Positions 948-17,832 of a DNA stretch of 32,403 nt are shown here, one piece after another. The notes beneath the pieces were generated by a model. That model did no database searches and was not told where the DNA came from. It saw nothing but the letters and a program-made list of their open reading frames with translations. Made by a program: the position numbers and the translations under genes. The number at the start of each line of letters is the position of its first letter. The stretch's first letter is position 1. Where the stretch lies: the IMG/VR virus record IMGVR_UViG_2675903336_000004; one strand, written 5' to 3'. The stretch comes from a virus. Its lineage: Duplodnaviria > Heunggongvirae > Uroviricota > Caudoviricetes.

Positions 948-1118
948 GAGGTTGCCCTGTATTCAGTGTCGCTGATTTGTATTGTCTGAAGTTGTTTTTA
1001 CGTTAAGTTGATGCAGATCAATTAATACGATACCTGCGTCATAATTGATTATTTGACGTGGTTTGATGGCGTAGATGCACGTTGTGACATGTAGATGATA
1101 ATTATTATCATTTTGCGG

Positions 1119-1313
1119 GTCCTTTCCGGCGATCCGACAGGTTACGGGGCGGAAGGCGCGCGGGTTTTCGCTATTTATGACAATTTTCCGGTTTAAGGCG
1201 TTTCCGTTCTTCTTCGCCGTAACCTAATGTTTTTATTTAAAACACCCCCTGAAAAGAAAGGAAACGACAGGTGCTGAAAACGGGCTTTTTGGCCTCTGTC
1301 GTTTCCTTTCTCT
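1119..1313 (+). other. cos: prophage cos packaging site (cosQ-like segment, cosN 1147-1158, cosB with R3, IHF site, R2, R1)
   Basis: Sequence gatccgacaggttacg followed by a 12-nt cohesive-end position, then cgcgggttttcgctatttatga. R-site-like repeats CGTTTCC(G/T)TTCT occur at about 1196-1216 and 1297-1313, with an inverted copy at about 1255-1270 and an AT-rich IHF-like site at about 1226-1245. All lie directly upstream of nu1, as in lambda. Confidence 0.85.
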
Positions 1314-1335
1314 GTTTTTGTCCGTGGAATGAACA

Positions 1336-1855
1336 ATGGAAGTCAACAAAAAGCAGCTGGCTGACATTTTCGGTGCGAGTATCCGTACCATTCAGAACTG
1401 GCAGGAACAGGGAATGCCCGTTCTGCGAGGCGGTGGCAAGGGTAATGAGGTGCTTTATGACTCTGCCGCCGTTATAAGATGGTATGCCGAAAGGGATGCT
1501 GAAATTGAGAACGAAAAGCTGCGCCGGGAAGTTGAAGAACTGCGGCAGGCCAGCGAGACAGATCTCCAGCCAGGGACTATTGAGTACGAACGCCATCGAC
1601 TTACGCGTGCGCAGGCCGACGCACAGGAGCTGAAAAATGCCAGAGACTCCGCTGAAGTGGTGGAAACCGCATTCTGTACTTTCGTGCTGTCGCGGATCGC
1701 AGGTGAAATTGCCAGTATTCTCGACGGGATCCCCCTGTCGGTGCAGCGGCGTTTTCCGGAACTGGAAAACCGACATGTTGATTTCCTGAAACGGGATATC
1801 ATCAAAGCCATGAACAAAGCAGCCGCGCTGGATGAACTGATACCGGGGTTGCTGA

Positions 1856-1881
<26 letters not shown>
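1336..1881 (+). CDS. nu1: terminase small subunit Nu1
   Basis: 181-aa ORF beginning MEVNKKQLADIFGASIRTIQNWQEQGMPVL, essentially identical to lambda gpNu1 as recalled. Follows cosB and overlaps the start of A. Confidence 0.97.
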
Positions 1882-4901
<3,020 letters not shown>

Positions 4902-4978
4902 AACCCTTGCTGCGTCTGGAATGTCGTTTTCCATGCTTTTGATGACCGTTCATCACCCTTCCAGTTTTTCGCGGTTTT

Positions 4979-5031
4979 GTGTATTGCAATGTGTATTGCA
5001 AATTGGCGATCGGGATGGGTGTGTATTGCAA
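4979..5031 (+). repeat. integrase arm-type direct repeats GTGTATTGCAA x3 (attL arm, upstream of int)
   Basis: Exact 11-mers at 4979-4989, 4991-5001 and 5021-5031. Two more copies in the same orientation sit at 15645-15667, just inside attR. Confidence 0.7.
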
Positions 5032-5049
5032 ATCTCTTGAGGGCTTTTA

Positions 5050-6291
5050 ATGGCTATTGAAAACAAACTCAGTGACAAACTGTTAAAGAGTCTTGTCGGA
5101 AAACGGCAGGACAAACAAAAAACAATAGCGGATGGGCGCGGGTTGTCTGTGCGTGTAAGCATGGTTGGGGGGATCAGCTTTGTTTTTTACTATCGTCTTG
5201 GTGGCAGGGAATCCCCTCCGGTATGGCTTACACTTGGTCGCTATCCTGACATGTCTCTTGCAACGGCCAGGCGCATGCGTGATCAGTGCCGTGAATGGCT
5301 GGCTGAAAATCTGGACCCCCGCAGGCAAATAAAACTTGCTGCCGAAAAAACTATGCAACCAGTGACCGTAAGGGATGCGCTGTTTTACTGGTACGACAAT
5401 CACGCCACAACAGCCAGAAAAGAGCATGAATATTTAATAAAACGATTTGAAAAGCATATCTTCCCCTATATCGGTGATATGGCTATAGAACAGTGCAAAT
5501 TACACACATGGCTTACCGTCTTTGACAGGATCAAAAAAAATGCGCCTGTTATGTCTGGTGCAATTTTTCTTGATATCAAACAGGCGTTGCGTTTTTGTCG
5601 CGTCAGGCAATACATCGCGTGCGATCCCTTTGGAGATATTAACGTAAGTTATGTCGGGCGCTCATCCGGTATAAGGGATCGCGTTCTTAATATCAATGAA
5701 ACCGCTGATGTATGGTCTTATGCTTACGGTAATAATTTGCTAACTCTGTCATCAATATATAACCGAAGAATAATGGTTATCTGCCTGGTGTTTGGTTGCC
5801 GACAGCAGGAGGCGAGGCTATCCACCTGGGACGAATGGGATTTAAAAAACTGGGTATGGACAGTCCCAAAAGAGCACAGCAAAAACAAGGAGGCTATAGT
5901 AAGGCCTGTTCCTGACGGAATAAAACAATGGATCGTTAATCTTTACGCAGAAACAAAAAATCGCGGTTATGTTGTCGGTTGTGCTTTGCAAAGGGCGACA
6001 ATAACAGGGGCTGCAAACAGAATATGCAGGCGTCTTGGTCATGATACTAATGGCTTGTGGTGCATACATGATTTCAGGCGCACATTTTCCACTACGCTTA
6101 ATGATATGGGGGCGGATCCTTATATTGTCGAACTTCTTTTAGGTCATAAAGTGAAAGGGGTTGCTGGTGTTTACAATAAAAGCAGGCATATAAAGAAAAA
6201 ACTTGAGGTGCTTAATATGTGGGTTAATTACCTTAATACGATAGCAGGATTTAACAACAACGTTATCGAGCTTAATAAAGAGGTGGTGTGA
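5050..6291 (+). CDS. int: tyrosine-type site-specific integrase (P4-like family)
   Basis: 413-aa ORF with the C-terminal catalytic signature HDFRRTFSTTLNDMGADPYIVELLLGH...VYNKS (His-x-x-Arg and Tyr). Located immediately inside attL, preceded by the arm repeats. Confidence 0.9.
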   Translation: MAIENKLSDKLLKSLVGKRQDKQKTIADGRGLSVRVSMVGGISFVFYYRLGGRESPPVWLTLGRYPDMSLATARRMRDQCREWLAENLDPRRQIKLAAEKTMQPVTVRDALFYWYDNHATTARKEHEYLIKRFEKHIFPYIGDMAIEQCKLHTWLTVFDRIKKNAPVMSGAIFLDIKQALRFCRVRQYIACDPFGDINVSYVGRSSGIRDRVLNINETADVWSYAYGNNLLTLSSIYNRRIMVICLVFGCRQQEARLSTWDEWDLKNWVWTVPKEHSKNKEAIVRPVPDGIKQWIVNLYAETKNRGYVVGCALQRATITGAANRICRRLGHDTNGLWCIHDFRRTFSTTLNDMGADPYIVELLLGHKVKGVAGVYNKSRHIKKKLEVLNMWVNYLNTIAGFNNNVIELNKEVV

Positions 6292-6292
6292 T

Positions 6293-6550
6293 ATGACAAT
6301 TTATTCTCTTGTTGATGAAAACGATTTGCGCACAATGAAGGACATTGATCGGTTCATTCGTGAAAAAGAGTGCATAGCACTTACCACGCTGGCAAACTCA
6401 ACACGCTGGAAAATGGAGCAGGCAGGTAAATTCCCGCGACGTATCAAGATCGGTGAACGTGCTGCAGGGTATCGACTTTCAGAGGTTCAGGCATGGATCC
6501 GTGGTGAGTGGCATCCTGGATGGAAACCTGGAAAAACAAAACAGCAATAA
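6293..6550 (+). CDS. alpA: AlpA-family transcriptional regulator / putative excisionase
   Basis: 85-aa ORF directly downstream of int. The segment IREKECIALTTLANSTRWKMEQAGKFPRRIKIGERAAGYRLSEVQAWI fits the AlpA/Xis-type HTH pattern. Confidence 0.8.
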   Translation: MTIYSLVDENDLRTMKDIDRFIREKECIALTTLANSTRWKMEQAGKFPRRIKIGERAAGYRLSEVQAWIRGEWHPGWKPGKTKQQ

Positions 6551-6563
6551 CCAGTAAATAATG

Positions 6564-6586
6564 CCCCTCATCACGAGGGGTTTTTT
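6564..6586 (+). terminator. rho-independent terminator after alpA
   Basis: Hairpin CCCCTC-atcac-GAGGGG followed by TTTTTT. Confidence 0.75.
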
Positions 6587-6606
6587 GTCTATAAGGTAAA
6601 AACGCG

Positions 6607-7185
6607 ATGAATAAAAATATTGCCGTGACGGGCAAGGGGTACGCTCGTCCAGTGAAAAAATTCTGCGATATTCGTGATCTCGTCGTTCTGCGCTTTGATA
6701 GTGTGAACGTTCGTGTGGTGTATCTGAACGGCGATCCGTGGTTTGTTGCAAAAGATGTTTGTGCTGCGCTGGAACTAACCAATTCGCGTACGGCGTTGCA
6801 GATGCTTGATGATGATGAAAAGGGAGTAAATTTAACTTACACCCCAGGAGGAAATCAGAATATGAGAATTATCTCTGAGTCAGGTTTCTACAAACTAATA
6901 GCCCGCAGCCGCAAAGCAACGACGCCTGGCACATTTGCTCATCGTTTCAGTAACTGGGTATTCAGAAATGTGATACCAGGTATCAGAAAAACGGGGACTT
7001 ATGGTATCCCGTGGGGTGCATTACAGGATTTTTCCCGCCGTAAAGAGCAATATCAAATAAGTGCCAGCGAGAAGGGGAGGGAGCTACAGGCATGTAAGCG
7101 CAAAAAGCGTGAGCTGGAGGAAGAAGAAAAAACGCTGATACGTGAATATCAGCCTGAGTTTTACTTTGGTAACCGCATTCAGTGA
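6607..7185 (+). CDS. Bro-N domain protein (antirepressor-like)
   Basis: 192-aa ORF. The segment DPWFVAKDVCAALELTNSRTALQMLDDDEKG...ISESGFYKLIARSRKATTPGTFAHRFSNWVFRNVIPGIRKTGTY matches the Bro-N/KilA-N type domain, with a charged coiled-coil-like C-terminus. Confidence 0.65.
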   Translation: MNKNIAVTGKGYARPVKKFCDIRDLVVLRFDSVNVRVVYLNGDPWFVAKDVCAALELTNSRTALQMLDDDEKGVNLTYTPGGNQNMRIISESGFYKLIARSRKATTPGTFAHRFSNWVFRNVIPGIRKTGTYGIPWGALQDFSRRKEQYQISASEKGRELQACKRKKRELEEEEKTLIREYQPEFYFGNRIQ

Positions 7186-7215
7186 CAAAACAAAGGCGAC
7201 CGCAAAAGGGTCGCC
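7186..7215 (-). terminator. putative rho-independent terminator of the leftward operon (possibly bidirectional)
   Basis: Hairpin GGCGACC-gcaaaag-GGTCGCC at 7195-7215, preceded on the + strand by aaaacaaa, which reads as a T-run after the stem on the - strand. Confidence 0.5.
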
Positions 7216-7281
7216 AGTGGGAACAAGGGAAAACAAAAGCATCACCAACAATGCCACATTTGCGGCTGGTGGGCAATGTGA

Positions 7282-7461
7282 TCAGTCAGATTTGGTTCGT
7301 TCCAAGGTTTGCAACGAGAGCTTTTTCCTGTGCTCTTTAAGGAATTTCTCAAGAGCAAACGAACAAGGTGCGAATCTTTCTGATTCATGTTCATGCGCTA
7401 TATTTTTGCGTCGTCTCTTACGAGTTGGTGATGGTGTTTTGGTTGATTCTGTGTCGCTCAT
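7282..7461 (-). CDS. small basic hypothetical protein (59 aa; below the ORF-track threshold)
   Basis: Manual translation of the reverse strand gives MSDTESTKTPSPTRKRRRKNIAHEHESERFAPCSFALEKFLKEHRKKLSLQTLERTKSD. It has an AGGA-containing RBS about 7 nt upstream and lies between orf101 and the terminator on the same strand. Confidence 0.35.
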   Translation of the reverse strand: MSDTESTKTPSPTRKRRRKNIAHEHESERFAPCSFALEKFLKEHRKKLSLQTLERTKSD

Positions 7462-7518
7462 GGTGCTGTCCTGTAAAGCAATGCGCCTGCGTTCCTCAAA
7501 CTATGGCGCTGATATTGG

Positions 7519-7824
7519 CTATTCATGCTCTTTGACCTTGCGTCGCTGGAGTTCTTCACGCGCGACGGTGACGAGTTGCCCGATCTCCTCGGCTGCTTTG
7601 ATGCCGATTTGTTCGACCTTAGCCAGGGCATCCAGTGACGACACAAGGGGATTTTCTCCGCTGCCTTCTGCTTGGCGGCGGGCTATTTCTCCGCGCATGG
7701 CGGTTACGATAAATCCGGCATTGCTTTCACCGTCCAGCTTAACGGATTCCATCCCTTGCATAACATCTAGTGGGACTCTGACAGTTGTCAGTTGTGATTT
7801 TGCGTTTTTGTTAGCCGTTGCCAT
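7519..7824 (-). CDS. putative transcriptional regulator (101 aa), divergent from the island early operon
   Basis: Complete ORF with an AGGAG RBS 8 nt upstream. It is transcribed away from the operator-containing intergenic region, and its position mirrors satellite/phage repressor genes. Fold assignment is tentative. Confidence 0.45.
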   Translation of the reverse strand: MATANKNAKSQLTTVRVPLDVMQGMESVKLDGESNAGFIVTAMRGEIARRQAEGSGENPLVSSLDALAKVEQIGIKAAEEIGQLVTVAREELQRRKVKEHE

Positions 7825-7885
7825 TTCTGAAACTCCTAATCATCGGTGTGTTTCAGTATACACAAAAAAAGAAATACAAAAAGCC

Positions 7886-7923
7886 TTGACGTGTGTTTCA
7901 TGCGCTCATAACATGAAACACAC
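7886..7923 (+). promoter_or_regulatory. rightward promoter (TTGACG, 17 bp, TAACAT) overlapped by a 12-bp perfect inverted-repeat operator
   Basis: GTGTGTTTCATG (7891-7902), 9-bp spacer, CATGAAACACAC (7912-7923). A third half-site GTGTGTTTCA is at 7846-7855. The -35 TTGACG is at 7886-7891 and the -10 TAACAT at 7909-7914. Confidence 0.6.
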
Positions 7924-8014
7924 CGAAAGGATTGTTGAAATACAAAGAGCAACGCCCCGCAGTGCTGGGAACACATACGGGGCGTCTAACCAACAACGTA
8001 AACTAGGAGCCGTT

Positions 8015-8212
8015 ATGGTTGCTGTAAATCATATACCACACCTTGTACACACACAAACGGCCTTTGTGTGGCGTTTTCTGGCACTGAGTGCCGGAGAATC
8101 TCAAATCATCCACGTAACCGCCTGGACGGAACGCGAAGCGCGTAGCCGTTGCCCGTCCGGTTGTGTTGCTGTATTCGCTGCAAAAATCCGCCAGGGAGTG
8201 AGTCATGCTTAA
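8015..8212 (+). CDS. small protein (65 aa), possibly Icd-like cell-division-inhibitor family
   Basis: ATG at 8015 with an AGGAG RBS 5 nt upstream; it shares frame and stop with the tail of the spurious long ORF 7142..8212. First gene after the operator-controlled promoter. Family assignment is from memory of a VWRFLAL-type motif and is tentative. Confidence 0.4.
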   Translation: MVAVNHIPHLVHTQTAFVWRFLALSAGESQIIHVTAWTEREARSRCPSGCVAVFAAKIRQGVSHA

Positions 8213-8390
8213 AACCTTCCGTGTATTTGCCCGAGCTGTTAACCCAATAGGCCACACAATTGGTATCGCTCAGAATGTGAAGGCTGTTAATGTTCAGACG
8301 GCTATTGCTGCGGTGAGAAGCGAATCATCAGAATATGGCTTATCACAAGTCATTATTTCAGCAGTGTATGAATTAAAAGAGGTGCATTAA
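8205..8390 (+). CDS. hypothetical protein (61 aa)
   Basis: Complete ORF whose start overlaps the stop of the preceding gene, indicating a translationally coupled operon. Confidence 0.4.
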   Translation: MLKTFRVFARAVNPIGHTIGIAQNVKAVNVQTAIAAVRSESSEYGLSQVIISAVYELKEVH

Positions 8391-8581
8391 TGCAGGAAAT
8401 TACATTACACGAAGCCGCTGAACGTGCGCACCAGACAGAAATTATTTGCCGCCTTCTTGAGGTATACCCGAACAAAATTACAGATGCTGATATATCCGCA
8501 CTGGCGAGCCTACTGGCGCGTCTTTCGGGAAGTGTCGCTAGTTTTTTGATTGAGGAAGAAAGTAAGCTGGTGGGGGATTAA
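8390..8581 (+). CDS. hypothetical protein (63 aa)
   Basis: Complete ORF with a TAATG stop/start overlap with the previous ORF. Confidence 0.4.
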   Translation: MQEITLHEAAERAHQTEIICRLLEVYPNKITDADISALASLLARLSGSVASFLIEEESKLVGD

Positions 8582-8803
8582 ATGAATACAGAACGGGAAG
8601 TCTTTTTTAAATTGTTAGCATGTGCAGAAAGTTCATTAACTTTAAATAATTCAGCAAAAGCAATATTAAATATGTGGCTTGATTGCATAAATGACAATGA
8701 AGATGCAAATATTGCTTATGGCCTGTTGTCACTTATTGATGAATCAGCAGAAAAACTCAATGACGCAATAAATAGTGCCCTGCTATCAAATAAGTCGAGT
8801 TAA
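8582..8803 (+). CDS. hypothetical protein (73 aa, AT-rich)
   Basis: Complete ORF abutting the previous stop. Codon composition is AT-rich. Confidence 0.4.
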   Translation: MNTEREVFFKLLACAESSLTLNNSAKAILNMWLDCINDNEDANIAYGLLSLIDESAEKLNDAINSALLSNKSS

Positions 8804-8820
8804 GTCGAGGAATAAATAAT

Positions 8821-9120
8821 ATGGAAATGAAAAATTCTGGCTTTATTGCCAGCGGCCCCGCTCGACCTGAATTTATGAACGGCGATATTTACCGCGATAA
8901 ATACGGCGGCACGGTAACGATTAAAGGCGTGGCAGAACGGCGCATCACTTACCGCCGTGAGGGGTATAGCTATGACTGCGTGATGCCTGTTTATCAGTTC
9001 CGGCGTGATTTTTCCCTGGTATATGCCGCACCCCGCAGTAAGCCCATCAGCAGGGAAAAAGCGTGGGGAAATATCCAGAAAATGAAAACCATGATTAACG
9101 GATTCAGAGGTAAAAAATGA
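8821..9120 (+). CDS. hypothetical protein (99 aa)
   Basis: Complete ORF with an ATGA overlap with the pri-rep start. Confidence 0.45.
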   Translation: MEMKNSGFIASGPARPEFMNGDIYRDKYGGTVTIKGVAERRITYRREGYSYDCVMPVYQFRRDFSLVYAAPRSKPISREKAWGNIQKMKTMINGFRGKK

Positions 9121-10871
9121 AACTGGCACCGAACGTAAAACAGCAGTCACGCGGCATAAAACACAAAGGAACAGAAGTCATTATTTTTGCGGGTAGTGAT
9201 GCCTGGGCACACGCGAAACAATGGCAGGAACATGATGCGCGTATGGCCGGAGATAATGAGCCTCCTGTGTGGCTTGGGGAGCAGCAGCTATCCGAACTGG
9301 ATAATCTGCAAATTGTGCCGGAAGGCCGAAAATCAGCACGCATATACAGGGCCGGATATCTTGCGCCTGTAATGATAAAGACGATTGGTCAGAAGCTGGC
9401 GGCAGCAGGCGTACAGGATGCAAATTTTTATCCTGAGGGTATGCACGGCCAGGAGGTGCAGAACTGGCGCGAATATCTGGCCCGTGAACGCCAGAATCTT
9501 TCTGATGGTCTGGTCATTGAGCTTCCGGTAAAGCAAAAGGCGCAACTTTCGCAGATGGCGGACAGTGAGCGCGCGCAGTTGCTTGCCGATCGCTTTGATG
9601 GCGTTTGCGTACATCCTGAAAGTGAAATCGTTCACGTATGGCGCGGCGGGGTATGGTGTCCGGTCAGCACAATGGAACTTAGCCGCGAAATGGTGGCGAT
9701 CTATTCAGAGCACAGGGCCACTTTCAGCAAGCGCGTAATCAATAACGCCGTGGAAGCGTTAAAAGTTATTGCCGAACCAATGGGCGAGCCGTCTGGCGAT
9801 TTGCTGCCGTTCGCCAATGGTGCGCTTGACCTGAAAACGGGGGAATTTTCCCCGCACACGCCGGAGAACTGGATCACCACGCACAACGGCATTGAGTACA
9901 CGCCACCAGCACCAGGGGAGAACATCCGCGATAACGCGCCAAACTTTCATAAATGGCTTGAGCACGCAGCCGGAAAAGACCCGCGCAAGATGATGCGTAT
10001 ATGTGCCGCGCTGTACATGATTATGGCGAACCGGTACGACTGGCAGATGTTTATTGAGGCCACCGGAGACGGCGGGAGCGGTAAAAGTACATTCACACAC
10101 ATAGCCAGCCTTCTGGCAGGGAAACAGAACACGGTAAGCGCTGAAATGACATCGCTTGATGATGCTGGTGGACGTGCGCAGGTTGTCGGGAGTCGTCTTA
10201 TCGTCCTGGCTGACCAGCCGAAATATACAGGCGAAGGAACGGGCATCAAGAAAATCACAGGCGGCGACCCCGTGGAAATTAACCCGAAATATGAAAAGCG
10301 TTTCACGGCGGTAATCAGGGCGGTGGTGCTGGCGACCAACAACAACCCGATGATATTCACCGAACGGGCCGGAGGTGTGGCACGTCGTCGCGTGATTTTC
10401 CGTTTCGACAATATCGTCAGTGAGGCCGAAAAAGACAGGGAGCTACCGGAAAAGATTGCGGCTGAAATCCCCGTTATTATCCGCCGATTGCTGGCGAACT
10501 TTACCGACCCTGAGAAGGCACGGGCTTTACTACTGGAACAGCGTGACGGTGATGAAGCACTGGCAATAAAGCAACAGACGGATCCGGTTATTGAGTTTTG
10601 CCAGTTCCTGAATTTTCTGGAGGAAGCGCGCGGCCTGATGATGGGTGGCGGTGGTGATTCAGTGAAGTACACGACCAGGAACAGCCTTTACCGCGTCTAT
10701 CTGGCGTTTATGGCATACGCGGGCAGGAGCAAACCGCTAAACGTGGCTGAGTTCAGCAAGGCCATGAAGCCAGCGGCGAAAGTTTACGGGCATGAATATA
10801 TTACGCGAAAAGTTAAGGGAGTAACGCAGACCAACGCAATTACAACAGACGATTGCGACGCGTTTTTATAA
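9117..10871 (+). CDS. primase/helicase replication initiator (pri-rep; P4-alpha/D5-like NTPase)
   Basis: 584-aa ORF with Walker A GDGGSGKST and a Walker B-like RLIVLADQP. Size, domain order and position (upstream of an iteron array) are as in PICI pri-rep genes. Confidence 0.85.
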   Translation: MKLAPNVKQQSRGIKHKGTEVIIFAGSDAWAHAKQWQEHDARMAGDNEPPVWLGEQQLSELDNLQIVPEGRKSARIYRAGYLAPVMIKTIGQKLAAAGVQDANFYPEGMHGQEVQNWREYLARERQNLSDGLVIELPVKQKAQLSQMADSERAQLLADRFDGVCVHPESEIVHVWRGGVWCPVSTMELSREMVAIYSEHRATFSKRVINNAVEALKVIAEPMGEPSGDLLPFANGALDLKTGEFSPHTPENWITTHNGIEYTPPAPGENIRDNAPNFHKWLEHAAGKDPRKMMRICAALYMIMANRYDWQMFIEATGDGGSGKSTFTHIASLLAGKQNTVSAEMTSLDDAGGRAQVVGSRLIVLADQPKYTGEGTGIKKITGGDPVEINPKYEKRFTAVIRAVVLATNNNPMIFTERAGGVARRRVIFRFDNIVSEAEKDRELPEKIAAEIPVIIRRLLANFTDPEKARALLLEQRDGDEALAIKQQTDPVIEFCQFLNFLEEARGLMMGGGGDSVKYTTRNSLYRVYLAFMAYAGRSKPLNVAEFSKAMKPAAKVYGHEYITRKVKGVTQTNAITTDDCDAFL

Positions 10872-10886
10872 TTTTTTGTAAAAGCC

Positions 10887-11105
10887 ATCTACCCCATCTA
10901 CCTGAACAAAATAAACGCATATTATTCAACATGATAAGTGGGTATAGGGCTAGGTAGAAGGCTAATAAAAGCTCTCTACCTCTTCTACCTGATTTTATCA
11001 GTTTCAGGTAGCAGGGTAGACGGCAGGTAGAGGAGTCAAAAAGCTATCTACCCGCTGAAAGCCGCGCCATTACTGACATGATGAGCATTCGGGTAGATGG
11101 GTAGA
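10887..11105. repeat. iteron array / putative replication origin (GGTAGA/TCTACC motifs, about 12 copies in both orientations)
   Basis: ATCTACC at 10887 and 10896; GGTAGA at 10953; TCTACC at 10975 and 10984; GGTAG(A) at 11007, 11015 and 11026; ATCTACC at 11046; GGTAGA at 11092 and 11100. Lies immediately 3' of pri-rep. Confidence 0.65.
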
Positions 11106-11218
11106 GGGGGGGAGGCACAACTAAAAACTTTTTAAACGAGGGGGGGTGAAAATAAATGCGCATACATAAAAATCACTTAACAAACATGCCAGCCGAAAAC
11201 ATGAATCAGGGGCGACAA

Positions 11219-11470
11219 ATGACCAAAATTCGCAGAGACAGAACACAGGCAAAATATAAAGCGTTAGACATGACAGAGCTTTCCTTAAAGGTGGCAATCA
11301 AAGCGATAGACCACCACACACGGGCAGGATACGCGAAGGAACATCCCGACCTGATAAGCGCATTCATGACCACAGCAGCGGCAAACTTTGCCACGCTGAC
11401 AGAACGGGAGATTGCCGAAGCGGAACAGGTGACAACCATCAATGTTAAAACCGGAGAGCAGACAGCATGA
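11219..11470 (+). CDS. hypothetical protein (83 aa from the ATG at 11219; track ORF begins at 11156)
   Basis: ATG at 11219 has an AGGGG RBS 6 nt upstream. Stop overlaps the ssb start (ATGA). Confidence 0.45.
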   Translation: MTKIRRDRTQAKYKALDMTELSLKVAIKAIDHHTRAGYAKEHPDLISAFMTTAAANFATLTEREIAEAEQVTTINVKTGEQTA

Positions 11471-11889
11471 CAGCACAGATAGCGGCTTACGGGCGGCTGG
11501 TGGCTGACCCGCAGTTAAAGACCACCAGCAAAGGGACACAAATGGCGATGGCGAGTATGGCGGTTCCCCTGCCGTGCAGCCAGGCAGATGACGGAACGGC
11601 GACGATGTGGTTATCCGTCCTGGCGTTTGGCAGACAGGCCGACGCACTGGCAAAACACCACAAAGGCGAACTGGTGAGCGTGGCGGGTAACATGCAGGTA
11701 AGCCAGTGGACAGGCCAGAACGGCGAAACGCGGCGGGGCTGGCAGGTTATCGCAGACAGCGTAATCAGTGCGCGAACGGCGCGACCGGGCGGCAAAAAAG
11801 GCCAGCAGGGGCAGGCCACTGACGCACTGAACAGGGCAAAACAACAGTCGGGGAATGATGATCCGTACGGCGATAATATACCGTTTTAA
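11467..11889 (+). CDS. ssb: single-stranded DNA-binding protein
   Basis: 140-aa ORF with an OB-fold-like core (MWLSVLAFGRQAD...VSQWTGQNGETRRGWQVIADSV), a Gly/Gln-rich linker and an acidic tail ending DDPYGDNIPF, like the SSB C-terminal DDDIPF tail. Confidence 0.75.
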   Translation: MTAQIAAYGRLVADPQLKTTSKGTQMAMASMAVPLPCSQADDGTATMWLSVLAFGRQADALAKHHKGELVSVAGNMQVSQWTGQNGETRRGWQVIADSVISARTARPGGKKGQQGQATDALNRAKQQSGNDDPYGDNIPF

Positions 11890-12100
11890 ATTCTGCAAAC
11901 AAAAAGATGCCGGAAAAAAATAGATTTTCCGGCATGCTACATAAATCCCGACCAAAGGAAGTAAATACATTAACACGAATTATCAGCACTGAAGTTGTTA
12001 CGGCATATTTTATACAACATTGCACTTGGTTGCATGTATTCGCATAGCAGACATCGGTAATAGAATATATTCACAATTATTTGTAATGAATGTAAAGAGG

Positions 12101-13147
12101 ATGAGTATGGTTGATTTATATTCGCCTACACAGCTTGTGCAGGTGGCTAATGCTGAAGATGTGCAAAAAAAATTAAATGCGTTGTTTACCAGTTTGTTTT
12201 TCACTCGCTCGGTAATGTTTGAATCGAGAGACATTATTCTTGATACGATCGACGATCCAAATATCCCGATCGCGGCGTTTTGCTCTCCTATGGTGGGCAG
12301 TAAAGTTTCACGAGATGAGGGATACGAATCAAAAACAATTCGTCCAGGTTATATGAAGCCGAAAAGCAGCATTGATCCAAATAAGTTAGCTGTGCGCCCT
12401 GCTGGTGTGTCACCTGAGCAATACAATGCTTTTGGGGCGCGTAATATTAAAGTTAAACAGGCGATTGTAAATCAGGCTAAAGCTATTCGTGCACGTATTG
12501 AATGGCTTGCTGTTCAGGCAATCACAACGGGGAAAAATATCATTGAGGGCGATGGTATTGAACGTTATGAGCTGGACTGGAATATAAAACCACAAAATAT
12601 CATCACTCAGTCTGGCGGTACTGAGTGGTCAGGTAAGGATAAAGAAACTTTTGATCCAAATGATGATATTGAGAGCTACGCAGAATTTAGTGAGGGCGTC
12701 ACTAATATCATCATTATGGGTGGTAATGTATGGAAGAAATACCGTTCATTCAGAGCGATAAAAGAGGCTTTGGATACCCGTCGTGGTTCTAATTCCGAAC
12801 TGGAAACGGCCCTTAAAGACCTTGGTGATTCGGTGAGTTTTAAAGGGTATATGGGCGATGTTGCGATTGTTGTTTACAGCGGGCGTTATACCGACGAGGA
12901 CGGAACAGAAAAACATTTCCTTGATCCTGATTTGATGGTGCTTGGCAATACGGCTCTTCAGGGGATTGTCGCCTATGGCGGTATTCAGGATCCGGAGCTA
13001 ATCCGAATGGGGCTGACTAAAGCCGAACTTGCACCGAAAAACTATATTGTGCCTGGTGATCCGGCTATTGAATATGTGCAGACACATTCAGCACCACAGC
13101 CAATACCGGCCCGCATCAATCGTTTTGTTACCGTTCGCATTGGCTAA
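12101..13147 (+). CDS. lambda gpE-like major capsid protein paralog (island-encoded)
   Basis: Alignable by eye along its length to the helper gpE in this window (18230..19255), e.g. ITQSGGTEWSGKDKETFDPNDDIESYA vs ITQSGVTEWSKRDKSTYDPTDDIEAYA, and TRRGSNSELETALKDLG...YMGDVAIVVYSG vs TRRGSHSELETAVKDLG...MYGDVAIVVYSG. Clearly diverged. An alternative start at 12107 has better RBS spacing. Confidence 0.8.
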   Translation: MSMVDLYSPTQLVQVANAEDVQKKLNALFTSLFFTRSVMFESRDIILDTIDDPNIPIAAFCSPMVGSKVSRDEGYESKTIRPGYMKPKSSIDPNKLAVRPAGVSPEQYNAFGARNIKVKQAIVNQAKAIRARIEWLAVQAITTGKNIIEGDGIERYELDWNIKPQNIITQSGGTEWSGKDKETFDPNDDIESYAEFSEGVTNIIIMGGNVWKKYRSFRAIKEALDTRRGSNSELETALKDLGDSVSFKGYMGDVAIVVYSGRYTDEDGTEKHFLDPDLMVLGNTALQGIVAYGGIQDPELIRMGLTKAELAPKNYIVPGDPAIEYVQTHSAPQPIPARINRFVTVRIG

Positions 13148-13156
13148 GGGGGAGCA

Positions 13157-13498
13157 ATGGCTACTCATTACACTGAACTCATGGCTGGCACTGAAGCACT
13201 GGTGACTACGCTGGGGATATTTTCAGCTAATAAAGGGGTAATTCCTGCATTTACGCCACTGATGCAGGAAGATGCAACAGGTGCACTGGTGGTATGGGAT
13301 GGTTCGAGCGTAGGTAAAGCGGTTTATGTTTCCGCTGTACAAATCGACACAGCGAAAAAAACACAGGCACAGGTTTATAAGACAGGTGTTTTAAATGTTG
13401 ATGCTCTGAACTGGCCTGAGTCTGTAAAAGAACTGTCGGCAAAGGTTGCCGCGTTTGTTGGCTCAGGTATTTCTGTTCAGCCGCTGGCTCGTGTGTAA
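13157..13498 (+). CDS. lambda gpD-like head decoration protein paralog (island-encoded)
   Basis: 113-aa ORF with a strong RBS (AAGGGGGAG). Shares the motifs TPLM, WDG, YKxG and WPE with the helper gpD (17842..18174) at equivalent spacing. Gene order is E-like then D-like, the reverse of lambda. Confidence 0.7.
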   Translation: MATHYTELMAGTEALVTTLGIFSANKGVIPAFTPLMQEDATGALVVWDGSSVGKAVYVSAVQIDTAKKTQAQVYKTGVLNVDALNWPESVKELSAKVAAFVGSGISVQPLARV

Positions 13499-13509
13499 AG
13501 GGGGATACA

Positions 13510-13893
13510 ATGCAGAATCATTACAATGACCTTAAGCCAATTGCCGAAATGATGTATCCGGATCCAGCAGTAGAGGAATTAAAGGCTATTGCTGACAAAA
13601 TGCGTTTAAGTGAACGCCTTGTTGATATGAATCAGGTGATGGAACTTACTACCCTTAGCCGTCGCACATTGCTAAACCTTGAGGCTCGCGGAGAGTTCCC
13701 CGAACGCGTACAGGTTACGGAAGGGCGTAAGGCCTGGTATTTAAGTGAAGTGATCGACTGGATAAACAATATTCCTCGATCTTCTGAATATTGCCGCGTA
13801 CCTGTCCCAAAAAAGCCAGATGCGGCGCTATGCCTCAAGATTGAGCGTGTACGTCGCAATGCACGGGATGGTCGCTATAAGTTGATTGGTTGA
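13510..13893 (+). CDS. AlpA-like HTH DNA-binding protein (second AlpA paralog), directly upstream of the island cos
   Basis: 127-aa ORF with RBS AGGGGG. The central segment MELTTLSRRTLLNLEARGEFPERVQVTEGRKAWYLSEVIDWI fits the AlpA/MerR-like HTH pattern and is flanked by N- and C-terminal extensions. Confidence 0.6.
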   Translation: MQNHYNDLKPIAEMMYPDPAVEELKAIADKMRLSERLVDMNQVMELTTLSRRTLLNLEARGEFPERVQVTEGRKAWYLSEVIDWINNIPRSSEYCRVPVPKKPDAALCLKIERVRRNARDGRYKLIG

Positions 13894-13918
13894 TGAAATT
13901 AGGGCCCGTTCTGGCTGG

Positions 13919-13985
13919 CGGGTCCTTTCCGGCGATCCGGTAGGCTACGGGGCGGCGACCTCGCGGGTTTTCGCTATTTATGAGC
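13919..13985 (+). other. cos: island cos site (cosQ-like segment plus canonical lambda cosN GGGCGGCGACCT at 13950-13961)
   Basis: gggtcctttccggcgatccg...ctacgGGGCGGCGACCTcgcgggttttcgctatttatga matches the lambda cos core as recalled. Downstream sequence, where cosB would be, differs from the prophage cosB. Confidence 0.8.
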
Positions 13986-14094
13986 CTTTTTCGGGTGCTG
14001 GTGGTGGTTTTGTTGTTCGCTCTATCTCTATGAATAAAAAGGAAAAGATAAAGCCAATACACCAACCTGAAACATTACTTAAGTGGGGATATTG

Positions 14095-14637
14095 ATGAAA
14101 TCGCACCTGATGAACAAAAAAAACATGGCGCAAAGCTGCCGTGTAAGTGCGACAGCGTTCGACAAGTGGGGAGTGACTCCCGTTGAACGTAAAGGCCGCG
14201 AGGCGTTTTATGATGTTGCCAGCGTAATAGACAATCGGGTTAGCAATGCAATTAACCAGATTACAGACGACAAAGGCGAGATTGATGATGATGAACTCCT
14301 ACGAGTCAGGATCAGATTGCTGACAGCACAGGCAGAGGCGCAGGAGCTTAAAAACGAGCGCGAACGCGGCGACGTTATTGATACAGCGTTTTGTATATAC
14401 GTGCTTTCAAAATTGGCGAGTCAGATTTCTTCAATCATGGACAGCCTGCCGCTTGCCATGACAAGGAAGTTTCCCGACATGAAGCCGTCTATGCTGGATG
14501 GACTGAAAAAAGAAGTTATCAGAGCCTGTAACGCATGCGCAAAACTTGACGAAAACATACCGCTGATGCTGTCCGATTATCTGATGGAAACTGCCGGAAA
14601 CGTACCGGATAAGTTGCAGCCGAATAAAGATAAGTAA
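14095..14637 (+). CDS. Nu1-like terminase small subunit (island-encoded; diverged N-terminal DNA-binding domain)
   Basis: The C-terminal two-thirds align with helper Nu1 (LTAQAEAQELKNERERGDVIDTAFCIYVLSKLASQISSIMDSLPLAMTRKFPDM vs LTRAQADAQELKNARDSAEVVETAFCTFVLSRIAGEIASILDGIPLSVQRRFPEL). The N-terminal about 60 aa are diverged. ATG at 14095 has a GTGGGG RBS; the track ORF starts at GTG 14083. Confidence 0.85.
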   Translation: MKSHLMNKKNMAQSCRVSATAFDKWGVTPVERKGREAFYDVASVIDNRVSNAINQITDDKGEIDDDELLRVRIRLLTAQAEAQELKNERERGDVIDTAFCIYVLSKLASQISSIMDSLPLAMTRKFPDMKPSMLDGLKKEVIRACNACAKLDENIPLMLSDYLMETAGNVPDKLQPNKDK

Positions 14638-14648
14638 CGTAGTACGCT

Positions 14649-14930
14649 ATGACTGAATCCGAAATACTGCGATTAATCCGCCGTGCTTGTGGAATCAGCA
14701 AGCAGCATGACGAACAGGCCACGCAGCCGGACAGCGTGACCGCAGATAATTATGTGCGTGTAGTGGCTGAGGTGATGCGCCGTGACGGTATTGAGCTTAA
14801 CGGCGTGGATATGCGCAACATACGAACAAGAGTCCTTGAGTTGCTGGCATATCGTCGCCGTTCTCAACAACGGAGGGAGAGCGCGAAAAATACTTACCAG
14901 TGGAAGAAGCCGGAACGATTGCGGCGGTAA
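14649..14930 (+). CDS. hypothetical protein (93 aa, Arg-rich C-terminus)
   Basis: Complete ORF immediately downstream of the island terS. No recognisable motif. Confidence 0.4.
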   Translation: MTESEILRLIRRACGISKQHDEQATQPDSVTADNYVRVVAEVMRRDGIELNGVDMRNIRTRVLELLAYRRRSQQRRESAKNTYQWKKPERLRR

Positions 14931-14945
14931 CTTGCTGATATTCCC

Positions 14946-15156
14946 GATAACGCAAAATTGCGCTGGCTGACTTGTTGCATTGCAAAAAGTTAAGCAGGAA
15001 GGCACGGCCTGTAAGATGGGATGCAGTAAGTAGTTCAAGGCTACCTTGTGCTGGCACGCACAGTTAAGCCGTCGGTGCTGGATATCCCCCACTGGGGGAA
15101 AAGCTGGCTACATCCCTCACATCTGAGGACTGATAACGCGACATTGCGCTGGCTGG
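14946..15156 (+). repeat. pair of 24-bp direct repeats GATAACGC(A/G)A(A/C)ATTGCGCTGGCTG, each followed by a short palindrome
   Basis: Copies at 14946-14969 and 15133-15156 match at 22 of 24 positions. Palindromes CGCAAAATTGCG and GTGCAAAATTGCAC lie within or next to them. Confidence 0.6.
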
Positions 15157-15180
15157 CAAAGTGCAAAATTGCACGATGGC

Positions 15181-15342
15181 CTAACCCATTGATTATTTCG
15201 AAAACCTGCAATGCAGGAAATCGGGGAAGTAAGCCTAAGCTATTGATTGTTTCGAAAACCCCCATTGGGGGATGTCGGGAAAGTAAGACTAACCCATTGA
15301 TTCTTCCACAATCCTCAATTTGAGGAGGCCGGAACGTCTACA
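15181..15342 (+). repeat. three tandem 54-bp repeat units, each with a different perfect hairpin (covarying stems)
   Basis: Units start at 15181, 15235 and 15289, each with CTAA(C/G)C(C/T)ATTGATT. Hairpins are CCTGCA-a-TGCAGG (15205-15217), CCCCCA-ttg-GGGG (15259-15271, stem of 4-5 bp) and CCTCAA-t-TTGAGG (15313-15325). Related hairpins lie upstream at 15086-15098 and 15115-15128. Confidence 0.7.
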
Positions 15343-15644
15343 TAGCTGCATCGCCGTAATGATGATTCAGCCCACCAGCCAAATCAGCACAGCAACGACA
15401 GAATAGCCCGACACAGAAAAACCACGAATATGGGGTTTTTGTTATGACATGGTCATGATGACCACTCATACAAAACAGGTAAAGCCCACCAGCCTGATTA
15501 AAGGTTAACCGGAAAAAAGCCAGGTATCCAATCTCGATATGGGGATCCCTATATCGACATTAACGCCCACTAAAACTGTGCATATATGCATAGAAAAAGC
15601 ATCCACCAGCTTTATGACGGATGCCGCTCATCTTATAAATAATC

Positions 15645-15667
15645 GTGTATTGCAGTGTGTATTGCGA
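15645..15667 (+). repeat. integrase arm-type repeats (GTGTATTGCAG, GTGTATTGCGA) at the attR arm
   Basis: Two copies in the same orientation as the three attL copies, about 75 bp inside the attR core. Confidence 0.65.
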
Positions 15668-15739
15668 CTCCTTTAAACGATAGGTCTGAGCATTCGTAAT
15701 GTACTGTTTTTAAATTTTATTTTTTCCTGTCTTTTCATA

Positions 15740-15747
15740 AAGGCGAT
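15740..15747. repeat. attR core (AAGGCGAT), right copy of the direct repeat
   Basis: Identical 8-mer to 4842-4849. Lambda B coding sequence resumes immediately to its right. Confidence 0.7.
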
Positions 15748-16316
15748 GTATGCCGCCACCATTGAAAGTGAGCTGGATACGCAGTCAGCGATGGATTTTA
15801 TTCTGGGCGCGAACAGTAAGGAGCAGCGGGAAAGGCTGACGGGCTGGATTGGTGAAATTGCCGCGTATTACGCCGCAGCACCGGTCCGTCTGGGAGGCGC
15901 AAAAGTGCCGCACCTGATGCCGGGGGACTCACTGAACCTGCAGACGGCTCAGGACACGGATAACGGCTACTCCGTGTTTGAGCAGTCACTGTTGCGGTAT
16001 ATCGCTGCCGGGCTGGGTGTCTCGTATGAGCAACTTTCCCGGAATTACGCCCAGATGAGCTACTCCACGGCACGGGCCAGTGCGAACGAGTCGTGGGCGT
16101 ACTTTATGGGGCGGCGAAAATTCGTCGCATCCCGTCAGGCGAGCCAGATGTTTCTGTGCTGGCTGGAAGAGGCCATCGTTCGCCGCGTGGTGACGTTACC
16201 TTCAAAAGCGCGCTTCAGCTTTCAGGAAGCCCGCAGTGCCTGGGGGAACTGCGACTGGATAGGCTCCGGTCGTATGGCCATCGATGGTCTGAAAGAAGTT
16301 CAGGAAGCGGTGATGC
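15746..16316 (+). CDS. B: portal protein B, 3' fragment (from native Met276; truncated by masked gap at 16317)
   Basis: MYAATIESELDTQSAMDFILGANSKEQRERLTGWIGEIAAYYAAAPVRLGG... matches the lambda gpB C-terminal half. The ATG at 15746 overlaps the attR core. Confidence 0.9.
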
Positions 16317-16584
16317 NNNNNNNNNNNNNNNNNNNNNNNNNNNNNNNNNNNNNNNNNNNNNNNNNNNNNNNNNNNNNNNNNNNNNNNNNNNNNNNNNNNN
16401 NNNNNNNNNNNNNNNNNNNNNNNNNNNNNNNNNNNNNNNNNNNNNNNNNNNNNNNNNNNNNNNNNNNNNNNNNNNNNNNNNNNNNNNNNNNNNNNNNNNN
16501 NNNNNNNNNNNNNNNNNNNNNNNNNNNNNNNNNNNNNNNNNNNNNNNNNNNNNNNNNNNNNNNNNNNNNNNNNNNNNNNNNNNN

Positions 16585-17832
16585 GCCTATGCGCGGGTTT
16601 TCTTTTGTGCGCTTGCAGGCCAGCTTGGGATCAGCTGCCTGACGGATGCAGTATCCGGCGACAGCCTGACTGCCGGAGAGGCACCCGCGGCGCTGGCGTT
16701 ATCCGGTGATGATGACGGACCACGACAGGCCCGCAGTTATCAGGTAATGAACGGCATCGCCGTGCTGCCGGTGTCCGGCACGCTGGTCAGCCGGACGCGG
16801 GCGCTGCAGCCGTACTCGGGGATGACCGGTTACAACGGCATTATCGCCCGTCTGCAACAGGCTGCCAGCGACCCGATGGTGGACGGCATTCTGCTCGATA
16901 TGGACACACCGGGCGGAATGGTGGCGGGAGCATTTGACTGCGCTGACATCATCGCCCGTGTGCGTGACATAAAGCCGGTATGGGCGCTGGCCAATGACAT
17001 GAACTGCAGCGCAGGTCAGCTGCTTGCCAGTGCCGCCTCCCGGCGTCTGGTCACGCAGACCGCCCGGACAGGCTCCATCGGCGTCATGATGGCTCACAGT
17101 AATTACGGCGCTGCACTGGAGAAACAGGGCGTGGAAATCACGCTGATTTACAGCGGCAGCCATAAGGTGGATGGCAACCCCTACAGCCATCTACCGGATG
17201 ATGTCCGGGAAACATTGCAGTCCCGGATGGATGCAACCCGCCGGATGTTTGCACAGAAGGTGTCGGCATATACCGGCCTGTCCGTGCAGGCTGTGCTGGA
17301 TACCGAGGCTGCAGTGTACAGCGGTCAGGAGGCCATTGATGCCGGACTGGCTGATGAACTTGTTAACAGTACCGATGCGATCACCGTCATGCGTGATGCA
17401 CTGGATGCACGTAAATCCCGTCTCTCAGGAGGGCGAATGACCAAAGAGACTCAATCAACAACTGTTTCAGCCACTGCTTCGCAGGCTGACGTTACTGGCG
17501 TGGTGCAAGCGACGGAGGGCGAGAACGCCAGCGCGGCGCAGCCGGACGTGAACGCGCAGATCACCGCAGCGGTTGCGGCAGAAAACAGTCGCATTATGGG
17601 GATCCTCAACTGTGAGGAGGCTCACGGACGCGAAGAACAGGCACGCGTGCTGGCCGAAACCCCCGGTATGACCGTGGAAACGGCCCGCCGTATTCTGGCC
17701 GCAGCACCACAGAGTGCACAGACGCGCAGTGACACTGCGCTGGATCGTCTGATGCAGGGGGCACCGGCACCGCTGGCTGCAGGTAACCCGGCATCTGATG
17801 CCGTTAACGATTTGCTGAACACACCAGTGTAA
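16585..17832 (+). CDS. C: capsid assembly protease C (5' end lost in masked gap)
   Basis: After the gap, AYARVFFCALAGQLGIS... through ...AVNDLLNTPV matches lambda gpC from about residue 25. Stop at 17830-17832. The track ORF 16093..17832 is a gap artefact that merges the B and C frames. Confidence 0.9.
   Translation, partial: AYARVFFCALAGQLGISCLTDAVSGDSLTAGEAPAALALSGDDDGPRQARSYQVMNGIAVLPVSGTLVSRTRALQPYSGMTGYNGIIARLQQAASDPMVDGILLDMDTPGGMVAGAFDCADIIARVRDIKPVWALANDMNCSAGQLLASAASRRLVTQTARTGSIGVMMAHSNYGAALEKQGVEITLIYSGSHKVDGNPYSHLPDDVRETLQSRMDATRRMFAQKVSAYTGLSVQAVLDTEAAVYSGQEAIDAGLADELVNSTDAITVMRDALDARKSRLSGGRMTKETQSTTVSATASQADVTGVVQATEGENASAAQPDVNAQITAAVAAENSRIMGILNCEEAHGREEQARVLAETPGMTVETARRILAAAPQSAQTRSDTALDRLMQGAPAPLAAGNPASDAVNDLLNTPV
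17227..17832 (+). CDS. nu3: scaffolding protein Nu3 (in-frame internal start within C)
   Basis: In-frame ATG 606 nt before the C stop, the same geometry as lambda Nu3 within C by recalled coordinates. Confidence 0.7.
   Translation: MDATRRMFAQKVSAYTGLSVQAVLDTEAAVYSGQEAIDAGLADELVNSTDAITVMRDALDARKSRLSGGRMTKETQSTTVSATASQADVTGVVQATEGENASAAQPDVNAQITAAVAAENSRIMGILNCEEAHGREEQARVLAETPGMTVETARRILAAAPQSAQTRSDTALDRLMQGAPAPLAAGNPASDAVNDLLNTPV

Follow-up and report, generated by a model that had tools for sequence, protein, structure and literature searches.

The Rpp proteins represent the only packaging mechanism of Escherichia coli phage-inducible chromosomal islands (PICIs) that has been studied experimentally so far. 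The island EcCICFT073, which carries rppA, strictly requires the small terminase subunit (TerS) of its helper phage (PMC6739421), and it has been hypothesised that in Rpp islands the helper TerS is needed only to deliver the large terminase subunit, TerL (Murialdo & Feiss, PMC9026076). A terS homologue has already been stated to occur in some Gram-negative PICIs (Fillol-Salom 2018, PMC6092414), and terS is a PICI core gene in SatelliteFinder (de Sousa 2023, PMC10085698); in open-access text we found no published analysis of a Nu1-type PICI TerS, of its cosB or of its relation to phage N15. Here we analysed a stretch of 32,403 nucleotides (the window; IMG/VR record IMGVR_UViG_2675903336_000004), in which a lambda-like prophage is interrupted by a satellite island of 10.9 kb. 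The island carries a lambda-type cos site and a terS gene of the Nu1 family, and this module most likely confers a private cosB specificity, with the helper TerL predicted to be supplied in trans. With its own cosB, a full-length TerS instead of an Rpp and no TerL, it differs from the packaging module of the helper, as an initial annotation of this DNA had proposed. The same annotation contrasted the locus with described E. coli PICIs, which is correct in that a TerS replaces the Rpp, but overstated because PICI terS genes are on record in the two reports just cited. The island module and its helper counterpart consist of the following features:

13919..13949, + strand: cosQ-proximal segment and left flank of cosN (-31..-1); matches lambda at 27/31 positions and the helper at 28/31
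13950..13961, + strand: cohesive end GGGCGGCGACCT, the cosN core (+1..+12), 12/12 identical to lambda
13962..13983, + strand: right flank of cosN (+13..+34), 22/22 identical to both lambda and the helper
13997..14017, + strand: candidate cosB, a single R3-like site GCTGGTGGTGGTTTTGTTGTT (+48..+68) with the core GGTGGTGGT at 14000-14008 (+51..+59)
14095..14637, + strand: island terS, 180 aa, Nu1 family (RefSeq WP_000835282.1, 'terminase small subunit')
terS codons 1-50: DNA-binding domain
terS codons 51-125: central helical and oligomerisation region
terS codons 126-180: C-terminal region, equivalent of the TerL-binding part
1116..3820, + strand: helper packaging module, from cosQ/cosN onward
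1147-1158: helper cohesive end, variant GGGCGGAAGGCG, 7/12 identical to lambda, all changes in positions 7-12
1199-1211, 1254-1266 (- strand) and 1300-1312: helper R3, R2 and R1
1336-1881, + strand: helper Nu1
1856-3820, + strand: helper gpA (TerL)

The initial annotation recognised a lambda cosQ/cosN at 13919-13985, and this is confirmed by a gap-free alignment to lambda positions -31..+36 (61/67 identical); blastn of the island cos interval against phages gave E ~1e-21. The 12-mer GGGCGGCGACCT was found in all TerS-type and Rpp-type islands examined. As 12 of 12 cohesive-end positions agree with lambda in the island and only 7 in the resident prophage, the island's end is more lambda-canonical than that of its host prophage. 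The flanks and the R3, R2 and R1 sites of the helper are lambda-like despite the variant end. The cohesive end's right half tolerates changes and varies naturally (PMC4669245); the exact helper variant recurs in 29 IMG/VR contigs, and the APEC O2-211 helper, which harbours the same island, has the canonical end. The first 30 residues of the helper gpA are identical to those of lambda gpA. In addition, the helper gpA open reading frame (ORF) spans 654 codons, whereas the APEC O2-211 prophage encodes a gpA of 641 aa, shorter by 13 codons; given this difference and the canonical end in APEC O2-211, the window derives from a different strain. The two prophages cannot be aligned over the interval ~3139-3427, a sign of mosaicism.

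The cos regions of this island, the Nissle 1917 PICI, the O157:H7 PICI and the Citrobacter/Enterobacter helper-embedded islands (L007-L010) were aligned by distance from the nick. The core GGTGGTGGT lies at exactly +51..+59 in every TerS-type island aligned, whether from E. coli, Citrobacter or Enterobacter, and its flanks drift. The TerS proteins of the Citrobacter/Enterobacter islands are only ~60% identical to that of the window, yet the same core stands at the same position. Within the window GGTGGTGGT occurs once, versus 0.05 occurrences expected by chance. A search of 13880-14700 for repeats or a second R-like or rR2-like site returned short chance repeats only, and no copy of the helper R3, R2 or R1 was found within the island; these occur only at 1199, 1254 (- strand) and 1300, in line with the earlier statement that helper R-site repeats are missing between the island cosN and terS. 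The candidate island cosB is one conserved block with no IHF site and no R2 or R1, which is the N15 type of organisation. In IMG/VR, all 58 testable cos sites with the GGTGGTGGT core are followed by this terS with its start at +146, and 15/15 cos sites with the alternative core ACCACCACC by rppA with its start at +102, although these loci are mostly related E. coli elements and therefore not independent observations. No TerL (gpA) gene was found within 3.5 kb of these IMG/VR cos sites.

The terS gene lies directly downstream of cosN-cosB, with its ATG at +146 from the nick. The identification of its product as a Nu1-like small terminase stands: it matched Pfam PF07471 (Phage_Nu1) with 85.8 bits (cutoff 30) over residues 66-148 and PHROG 57 over residues 1-176 (E=5e-51). 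The restriction of the Pfam match to residues 66-148 is due to local alignment and is no evidence of a domain swap. Against the helper Nu1, BLASTP aligned residues 6-167 with 37% identity (E=5e-36). Identity was 40% in the DNA-binding domain (17/43), 17% in the linker, which is 13 residues shorter, 48% across the 96 C-terminal columns and 38% in the final 40 residues, which bind gpA in lambda Nu1; the island TerS is therefore evenly diverged from the helper Nu1 and is not a helper body with a foreign head. The initial annotation had proposed a swapped DNA-recognition domain on a helper-like Nu1 chassis and an N-terminal winged helix-turn-helix (wHTH) unrelated in sequence to the helper Nu1, and neither proposal survives these comparisons. 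It was right that the Nu1 C-terminal region is present as a homologous part, but the figure for the last 40 residues shows no special retention. The segment nearest to the helper Nu1 is the central one, residues 71-120 (29/50 identical, in blocks of 6-7/10).

The closest phage match of the island TerS is N15 gp1 (47.6% identity), and the resemblance is strongest in the DNA-binding domain, where 27/45 residues (60%) are identical. The recognition-helix/wing segments are nearly the same (VSATAFDKWGVTPVERKGREAFYDV in the island and ISVQAFDKWGVQPVEKRGREVFFDV in N15); the helix reads SATAFDKWGVT in the island and SVQAFDKWGVQ in N15, with the motif AFDKWGV.PVE kept, and helix and wing are the most conserved residue blocks in the satellite TerS family (majority fraction 0.96). 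Judged from these alignments, the whole island TerS is a separate Nu1 lineage whose DNA-binding domain is N15-like and not novel. Further towards the C-terminus, residues 151-160 (LDENIPLMLS) are identical to lambda Nu1 at 7/10 positions, a likeness that the O157 counterpart VADNLPQILA does not show, and the island TerS carries the lambda-like motif IP..L..Y.

In the N15 cosB a single R3 lies at bp 48-59 (GAGGTTGTTGTT), an IHF site, R2 and R1 are all missing, and scrambling of bp 54-59 (GTTGTT) lowers phage yield 100-fold (PMC4669245). The island resembles this arrangement in its single R site at +48..+59, in the short distance from cosN to the gene and in the helix core AFDKWGV.PVE..GRE, and the core GGTGGTGGT shares position and triplet phase with the N15 R3. 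The triplets themselves differ, (GTT)3 in N15 versus (GGT)3-4 in the island: the island sequence GCTGGTGGTGGT agrees with N15 at 4/6 of the critical positions 54-59, with G instead of T as the middle base. Being N15 triplets with a changed middle base, the island block would constitute a single-R3 cosB of related, non-identical specificity. The two systems differ in other respects as well. The C-terminus of the N15 protein is 78-80% identical to that of lambda, whereas for the island the corresponding values against the helper Nu1 are the 48% and 38% given above; N15 has its own TerL gene after gp1 and the island has none; the N15 cohesive end is 2/12 off that of lambda, while that of the island is not; and no second site like rR2 was found in the island.

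From the anatomy, conservation and cassette allelism observed here, together with the purifying selection on terS, we infer DNA binding at the GGT block, recruitment of gpA and independence from the helper TerS. After excision and replication, the island would be packaged by a self-contained cos-plus-TerS cassette. A TerS dimer would sit, through its N15-type wHTH, on the single R3-like (GGT)3-4 site at +48..+59 (13997-14008), which the helper Nu1 is not expected to recognise, and the C-terminal domain would recruit the helper large terminase gpA. The recruited gpA would then nick the lambda-type cosN (13950-13961), and island concatemers would enter heads made by the helper. Packaging is thus predicted to need the helper TerL and not the helper TerS, with competition for gpA as a by-product. 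On balance, we lean towards this reading, in which the island TerS would bind its own R3-like site and bring the helper gpA to the island cosN with no need for the helper Nu1. It is favoured because the island combines an intact lambda-type cos, a full-length Nu1-family TerS with an N15-like DNA-binding domain and a position-fixed GGTGGTGGT core; because core and terS are linked at 58/58 sites, the cassette is swapped as a unit and dN/dS is low (0.09-0.24) in every domain including the C-terminus; and because the LDENIPLMLS segment resembles lambda Nu1 and the helper gpA has the lambda N-terminus. Further reasons are the abundance of this terS with no TerL gene following it, and a precedent: lambda-N15hy4 has a chimeric TerS, in which the DNA-binding domain of N15 is joined to a lambda C-terminus, and this protein directs lambda TerL to the N15 cosB (PMC4669245).

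No large terminase was found in the island by Pfam or in the RefSeq annotation, as the initial annotation had stated, and the pairing with an adjacent TerL that is usual in phages does not occur here. A similar division of labour is described for SaPIs, the pathogenicity islands of Staphylococcus aureus, in which a satellite TerS homologue serves the satellite's own packaging site and works with the TerL of the helper (Ubeda 2007, as summarised in PMC6739421), as is predicted for the island. In contrast, packaging in SaPIs is of the headful pac type and relies on a TerS from an unrelated family, whereas the island is of the cos type with nicking predicted at a lambda cosN; and in SaPIs Ppi blocks the helper TerS, whereas no Ppi-like gene was identified in the island.

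The described system closest in position is the Rpp cassette of EcCICFT073-type islands (PMC6739421, PMC9026076). The right end of EcCICFT073 contains capsid, D-like gene, small ORF, cos, RppA (c1503) and a 93-aa gene, and the 93-aa protein encoded downstream of the island terS (14649-14930) is 76% identical to its counterpart downstream of rppA. On account of this shared gene order and similarity, the island terS occupies the rppA slot. The roxA-phoQ site that holds EcCICFT073 is occupied in O157 by another PICI, and between the capsid gene and +42 of cosN the two share 94% identity; past +42 the O157 PICI has cosB plus terS (792 bp) where EcCICFT073 has cosB plus rppA (664 bp), and similarity sets in again at a second cos in inverted orientation. 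Since homologous flanks enclose a segment that is swapped, cosB-terS and cosB-rppA are alternative cassettes. The island module would thereby be the full-length-TerS alternative to the Rpp cassette at the same position. The two cassettes have in common this slot, a canonical cosN, a single private cosB of R3 type without helper R sites and an N-terminal TerS-like wHTH. They differ in the protein, which in the island is 180 aa long and includes central and C-terminal parts of Nu1 type, versus 135-154 aa without the TerL-binding tail in Rpps; in the cosB core, GGTGGTGGT at +51..+59 versus ACCACCACC at +55..+63; in the gene start, +146 versus +102; and in that the island system is predicted to work without the helper TerS.

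The Rpp-type core ACCACCACC (L006:2613-2621 in EcCICFT073) is the exact reverse complement of the TerS-type core GGTGGTGGT. Inversion of the cassette between the first cos and the inverted second cos was considered as the source of this (ACC)3/(GGT)3 difference and was rejected, as the same arrangement would be recreated from the second cos. Such a second, inverted cos lies downstream of terS or rppA in the chromosomal relatives (O157, L012:12690-12764; Nissle, L011 ~12734; CFT073, L006 ~3309), and its +48..+65 region resembles a helper-type R3; the Nissle copy (GTCGGTACTTCTCGAA) matches the cosB of a 21-type prophage of CFT073. It is absent from the island of the window, where 14638-14648 is only an 11-nt gap. 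The 137-aa ORF upstream of the EcCICFT073 cos (L006:2084-2497) weakly matches positions 495-567 of phrog_53 (E=1e-8), which correspond to the C-terminal part of a head-maturation protease/scaffold PHROG; the corresponding place in the window is taken by an unrelated AlpA-like helix-turn-helix (HTH) protein.

The shared slot raises the question whether the island TerS might work as Rpps do. It would then not be productive with gpA alone and would co-assemble with the helper Nu1 through the central oligomerisation region or the dimer interface of the DNA-binding domain; the mixed oligomer would read the island cosB, the helper Nu1 would contact gpA, and helper packaging would be poisoned too. 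The position of terS in what is the rppA slot of a syntenic PICI speaks for such a mode, as do the closeness of residues 71-120 to the helper Nu1, the modest identity of the tail, the strict need of EcCICFT073 for the helper TerS and the match of the RppA N-terminus to the TerS profile PHROG 57. However, similarity to Rpp was not detectable beyond the wHTH: BLASTP of the island TerS against RppA gave no alignment, and hhalign of the satellite-TerS family against the Rpp family (E=0.39) aligned the wHTH only and lent no support to full-length homology. The Rpp helices behind the RppC-TerS contacts have no counterpart in the island TerS. Moreover, Rpps have lost the C-terminal 30-40 residues (PMC9026076), whereas the island TerS keeps them, under constraint (dN/dS 0.17-0.19 for codons 126-180) and with the lambda-like IP..L..Y motif. 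We therefore regard an Rpp-like mode as possible but rather unlikely.

The terS gene is under purifying selection, with dN/dS of ~0.2 overall and 0.09-0.24 in all three domains. A passive role for the gene would be that of a relic within a captured phage fragment, in which cos alone suffices for the helper terminase, as in SaPIbov5. Helper-embedded PICIs often capture helper late genes (PMC10111431), and lambda transfers plasmids that carry the cos of EcCICFT073, though at a lowered frequency (PMC6092414). However, the island lacks helper R sites, and N15 DNA is not packaged by the terminases of lambda and 21 (PMC4669245). The gene is intact, is under purifying selection and is conserved together with its site in different genera and in ~14% of E. 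coli genomes, and with only 37% identity to the resident Nu1 it is no recent capture from that helper. A relic is thus quite improbable.

When the terS allele of the window is compared with that of O157/Nissle, dS amounts to 0.14-0.37 in codons 1-125 and 1.3-1.4 in codons 126-180 (14470-14634). The C-terminal third is therefore of much older divergence and the gene is mosaic; on this measure, the exchanged module is the TerL-binding-equivalent C-terminal part and not the DNA-binding domain. At least two tail types, KLDENIP.MLSDYL and RVADNLPQILADYL, exist in E. coli. A mosaic tail of this kind is the pattern expected of an interface that tracks different helper TerLs, and it would also fit a protein that serves mainly for interference or defence, one that competes for, sequesters or misdirects gpA and lowers helper yield, with a secondary benefit for packaging. 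Satellite packaging factors usually hinder the helper too (Rpp; SaPI TerS plus Ppi; PMC6739421). By contrast, the tight, position-fixed link to a cos with a conserved R3-like site argues for packaging in cis, and an N15-like TerS need not exclude helper DNA, given that lambda DNA is packaged by N15-specific terminase at ~50% efficiency (PMC4669245). We consider a mainly interfering function improbable.

Several points weigh against the reading that we favour, in which the island TerS would bring gpA to the island cosN by itself. DNA binding and packaging by the island TerS are predictions. The last 40 residues of the island TerS are 38% identical to the helper Nu1, not far from the 30% seen when phage 21-type TerS is compared with lambda TerS. 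In older work with lambda/21 hybrids, the TerS proteins of lambda and 21 reportedly could not replace each other in TerL binding. The natural helper is not necessarily the resident prophage, given that this prophage has a variant cosN and that most relatives of the island are chromosomal PICIs. Since the core departs from the N15 R3 within bp 54-59, N15 specificity is not simply transferable to it. Structure modelling also gave no help: AlphaFold2 with a 20-sequence alignment yielded a mean predicted local distance difference test score (pLDDT) of 58.9, with a low-confidence wHTH followed by long helices, and was not used, and Foldseek of this model against PDB returned nothing significant (best, a weak MerR-family match, E=0.3). 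When the island TerS was searched against PDB sequences, no relative was returned at E<=1, not even RppC (6HLK); the control search with the helper Nu1 matched 6HN7_B and 1J9I, and 6HLK weakly.

This terS type was found in 763-793 of 5426 complete E. coli genomes (~14%), whereas rppA was found in 97-110 (~2%). None of the terS loci examined had a TerL gene following the terS. Its sites include tRNA-Pro (Nissle 1917), roxA-phoQ (O157:H7), cspD-clpS, and prophage portal and capsid genes. Roughly every seventh complete E. coli genome, O157:H7 strains and Nissle 1917 among them, thus has the cassette, which is about seven times more frequent than rppA. A PICI-encoded TerS is already a known kind of protein and is annotated in RefSeq; the main value lies in this prevalence and in the clean experiments that the cassette enables. 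The cassette provides a naturally occurring way to ask why Rpp-type islands depend on the helper TerS, since a satellite TerS that keeps the tail should not need it. The triplets (GGT)3 of the island, (GTT)3 of N15 and (ACC)3 of Rpp-type islands make up a compact set from which the reading of DNA by Nu1-type wHTH domains could be worked out, and the same sites could guide orthogonal cos packaging for PICI-based delivery vehicles. More tentatively, a self-sufficient satellite TerS, and not Rpp, might be the commonest packaging strategy of E. coli cos-type PICIs: a private, N15-related (GGT)n specificity would be read by the AFDKWGV helix, helper TerL would be bound directly, the satellite would not depend on the helper TerS, the TerL-binding third would be exchanged by recombination to follow different helpers, and the system would be ancestral to Rpp through tail loss and site inversion. 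If this were true, such an ancestral TerS would explain where Rpp came from, a question ('what is the origin of Rpp?') raised in PMC6739421, and would put to the test the proposal of Murialdo and Feiss that TerS only delivers TerL.

The island as a whole is a helper-embedded PICI, which is a known kind of element. The genes of the prophage follow the order cos, Nu1, gpA, W, split portal gene B, then protease, D, E and tail genes. The two portal pieces match positions 2-242 and 238-354 of the Pfam Phage_portal_2 profile, with the break at ~241, and the reading frame of the portal is restored once the fragments are joined. All island genes are on the + strand:

4020-~4854 and ~15740-16642: the two pieces of portal gene B
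4842-15752: island span
4842..4854, + strand: attL core AAGGCGATTTATG, within helper portal gene B
5050..10871, + strand: satellite backbone (Pfam matches; RefSeq annotation of the 99.8%-identical APEC O2-211 locus)
5050-6291, + strand: integrase
6293-6550, + strand: AlpA
6607-7185, + strand: Bro-N protein
8821-9120, + strand: DUF4222 protein
9117-10871, + strand: D5-type primase
11467-11889, + strand: SSB
12107-13147, + strand: lambda E-like major capsid gene, island copy (Pfam Phage_cap_E)
13157-13498, + strand: D-like decoration gene, island copy (Pfam HDPD)
13510..13893, + strand: AlpA-like HTH protein, 127 aa, directly upstream of cos (Pfam Phage_AlpA; PHROG 2790)
14649..14930, + strand: 93-aa conserved protein downstream of terS (PHROG 1561, to which PHROG assigns no function)
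15740..15752, + strand: attR core AAGGCGATGTATG

The attL and attR sites have the identity block AAGGCGAT.TATG in common. The layout int-alpA-(Bro)-primase-late zone, in one direction and within ~10-20 kb, is that by which PICIs are recognised, and a co-oriented insertion in a prophage late gene with an att identity block is that of helper-embedded PICIs. The island agrees with the helper-embedded PICIs or satellites described by Tommasini, Mageeney & Williams (2023, PMC10111431; bioRxiv 10.1101/2022.07.18.500453) in its size of ~10.9 kb, in its int, AlpA, Bro, primase and late-zone capsid genes, and in its co-oriented position in a lambdoid late gene, at a site equivalent to B:Phage_portal_2:241. 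It differs from their model element 11capE, which is stated to lack terS and to share its cos segment with the helper, whereas the island has its own terS and a private cosB (PMC10111431). Excision has been shown experimentally only for 11capE, a related element (PMC10111431); for the island itself, induction, excision and packaging by the helper are predicted. The portal protein would not be producible before excision of the island, as proposed for helper-embedded PICIs. A 99.8%-identical copy of the island is present in E. coli APEC O2-211 and in ~60 other complete genomes.

The island capsid protein is 42% identical to that of the helper. The 127-aa AlpA-like protein is kept beside cos-terS in loci L007-L010, L042 and L043; it was considered as an Rpp and rejected, as it has no similarity to Rpp. 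An Rfam search of the island gave no match. Between the 93-aa gene and attR there are three tandem 54-nt repeats (15179-15340; 61-80% identity to the reference copy), each containing a palindrome such as CCTGCAATGCAGG, and a 24-nt repeat, GATAACGCAAAATTGCGCTGGCTG, occurs at 14946 and 15132; these repeats are possible attP arm sites for the integrase or AlpA. The interval 4978-5033, just upstream of the integrase gene, contains three copies of TGTGTATTGCAA(A/T), and an 11-nt match to them, GTGTGTATTGC, is found at 15655, near attR.

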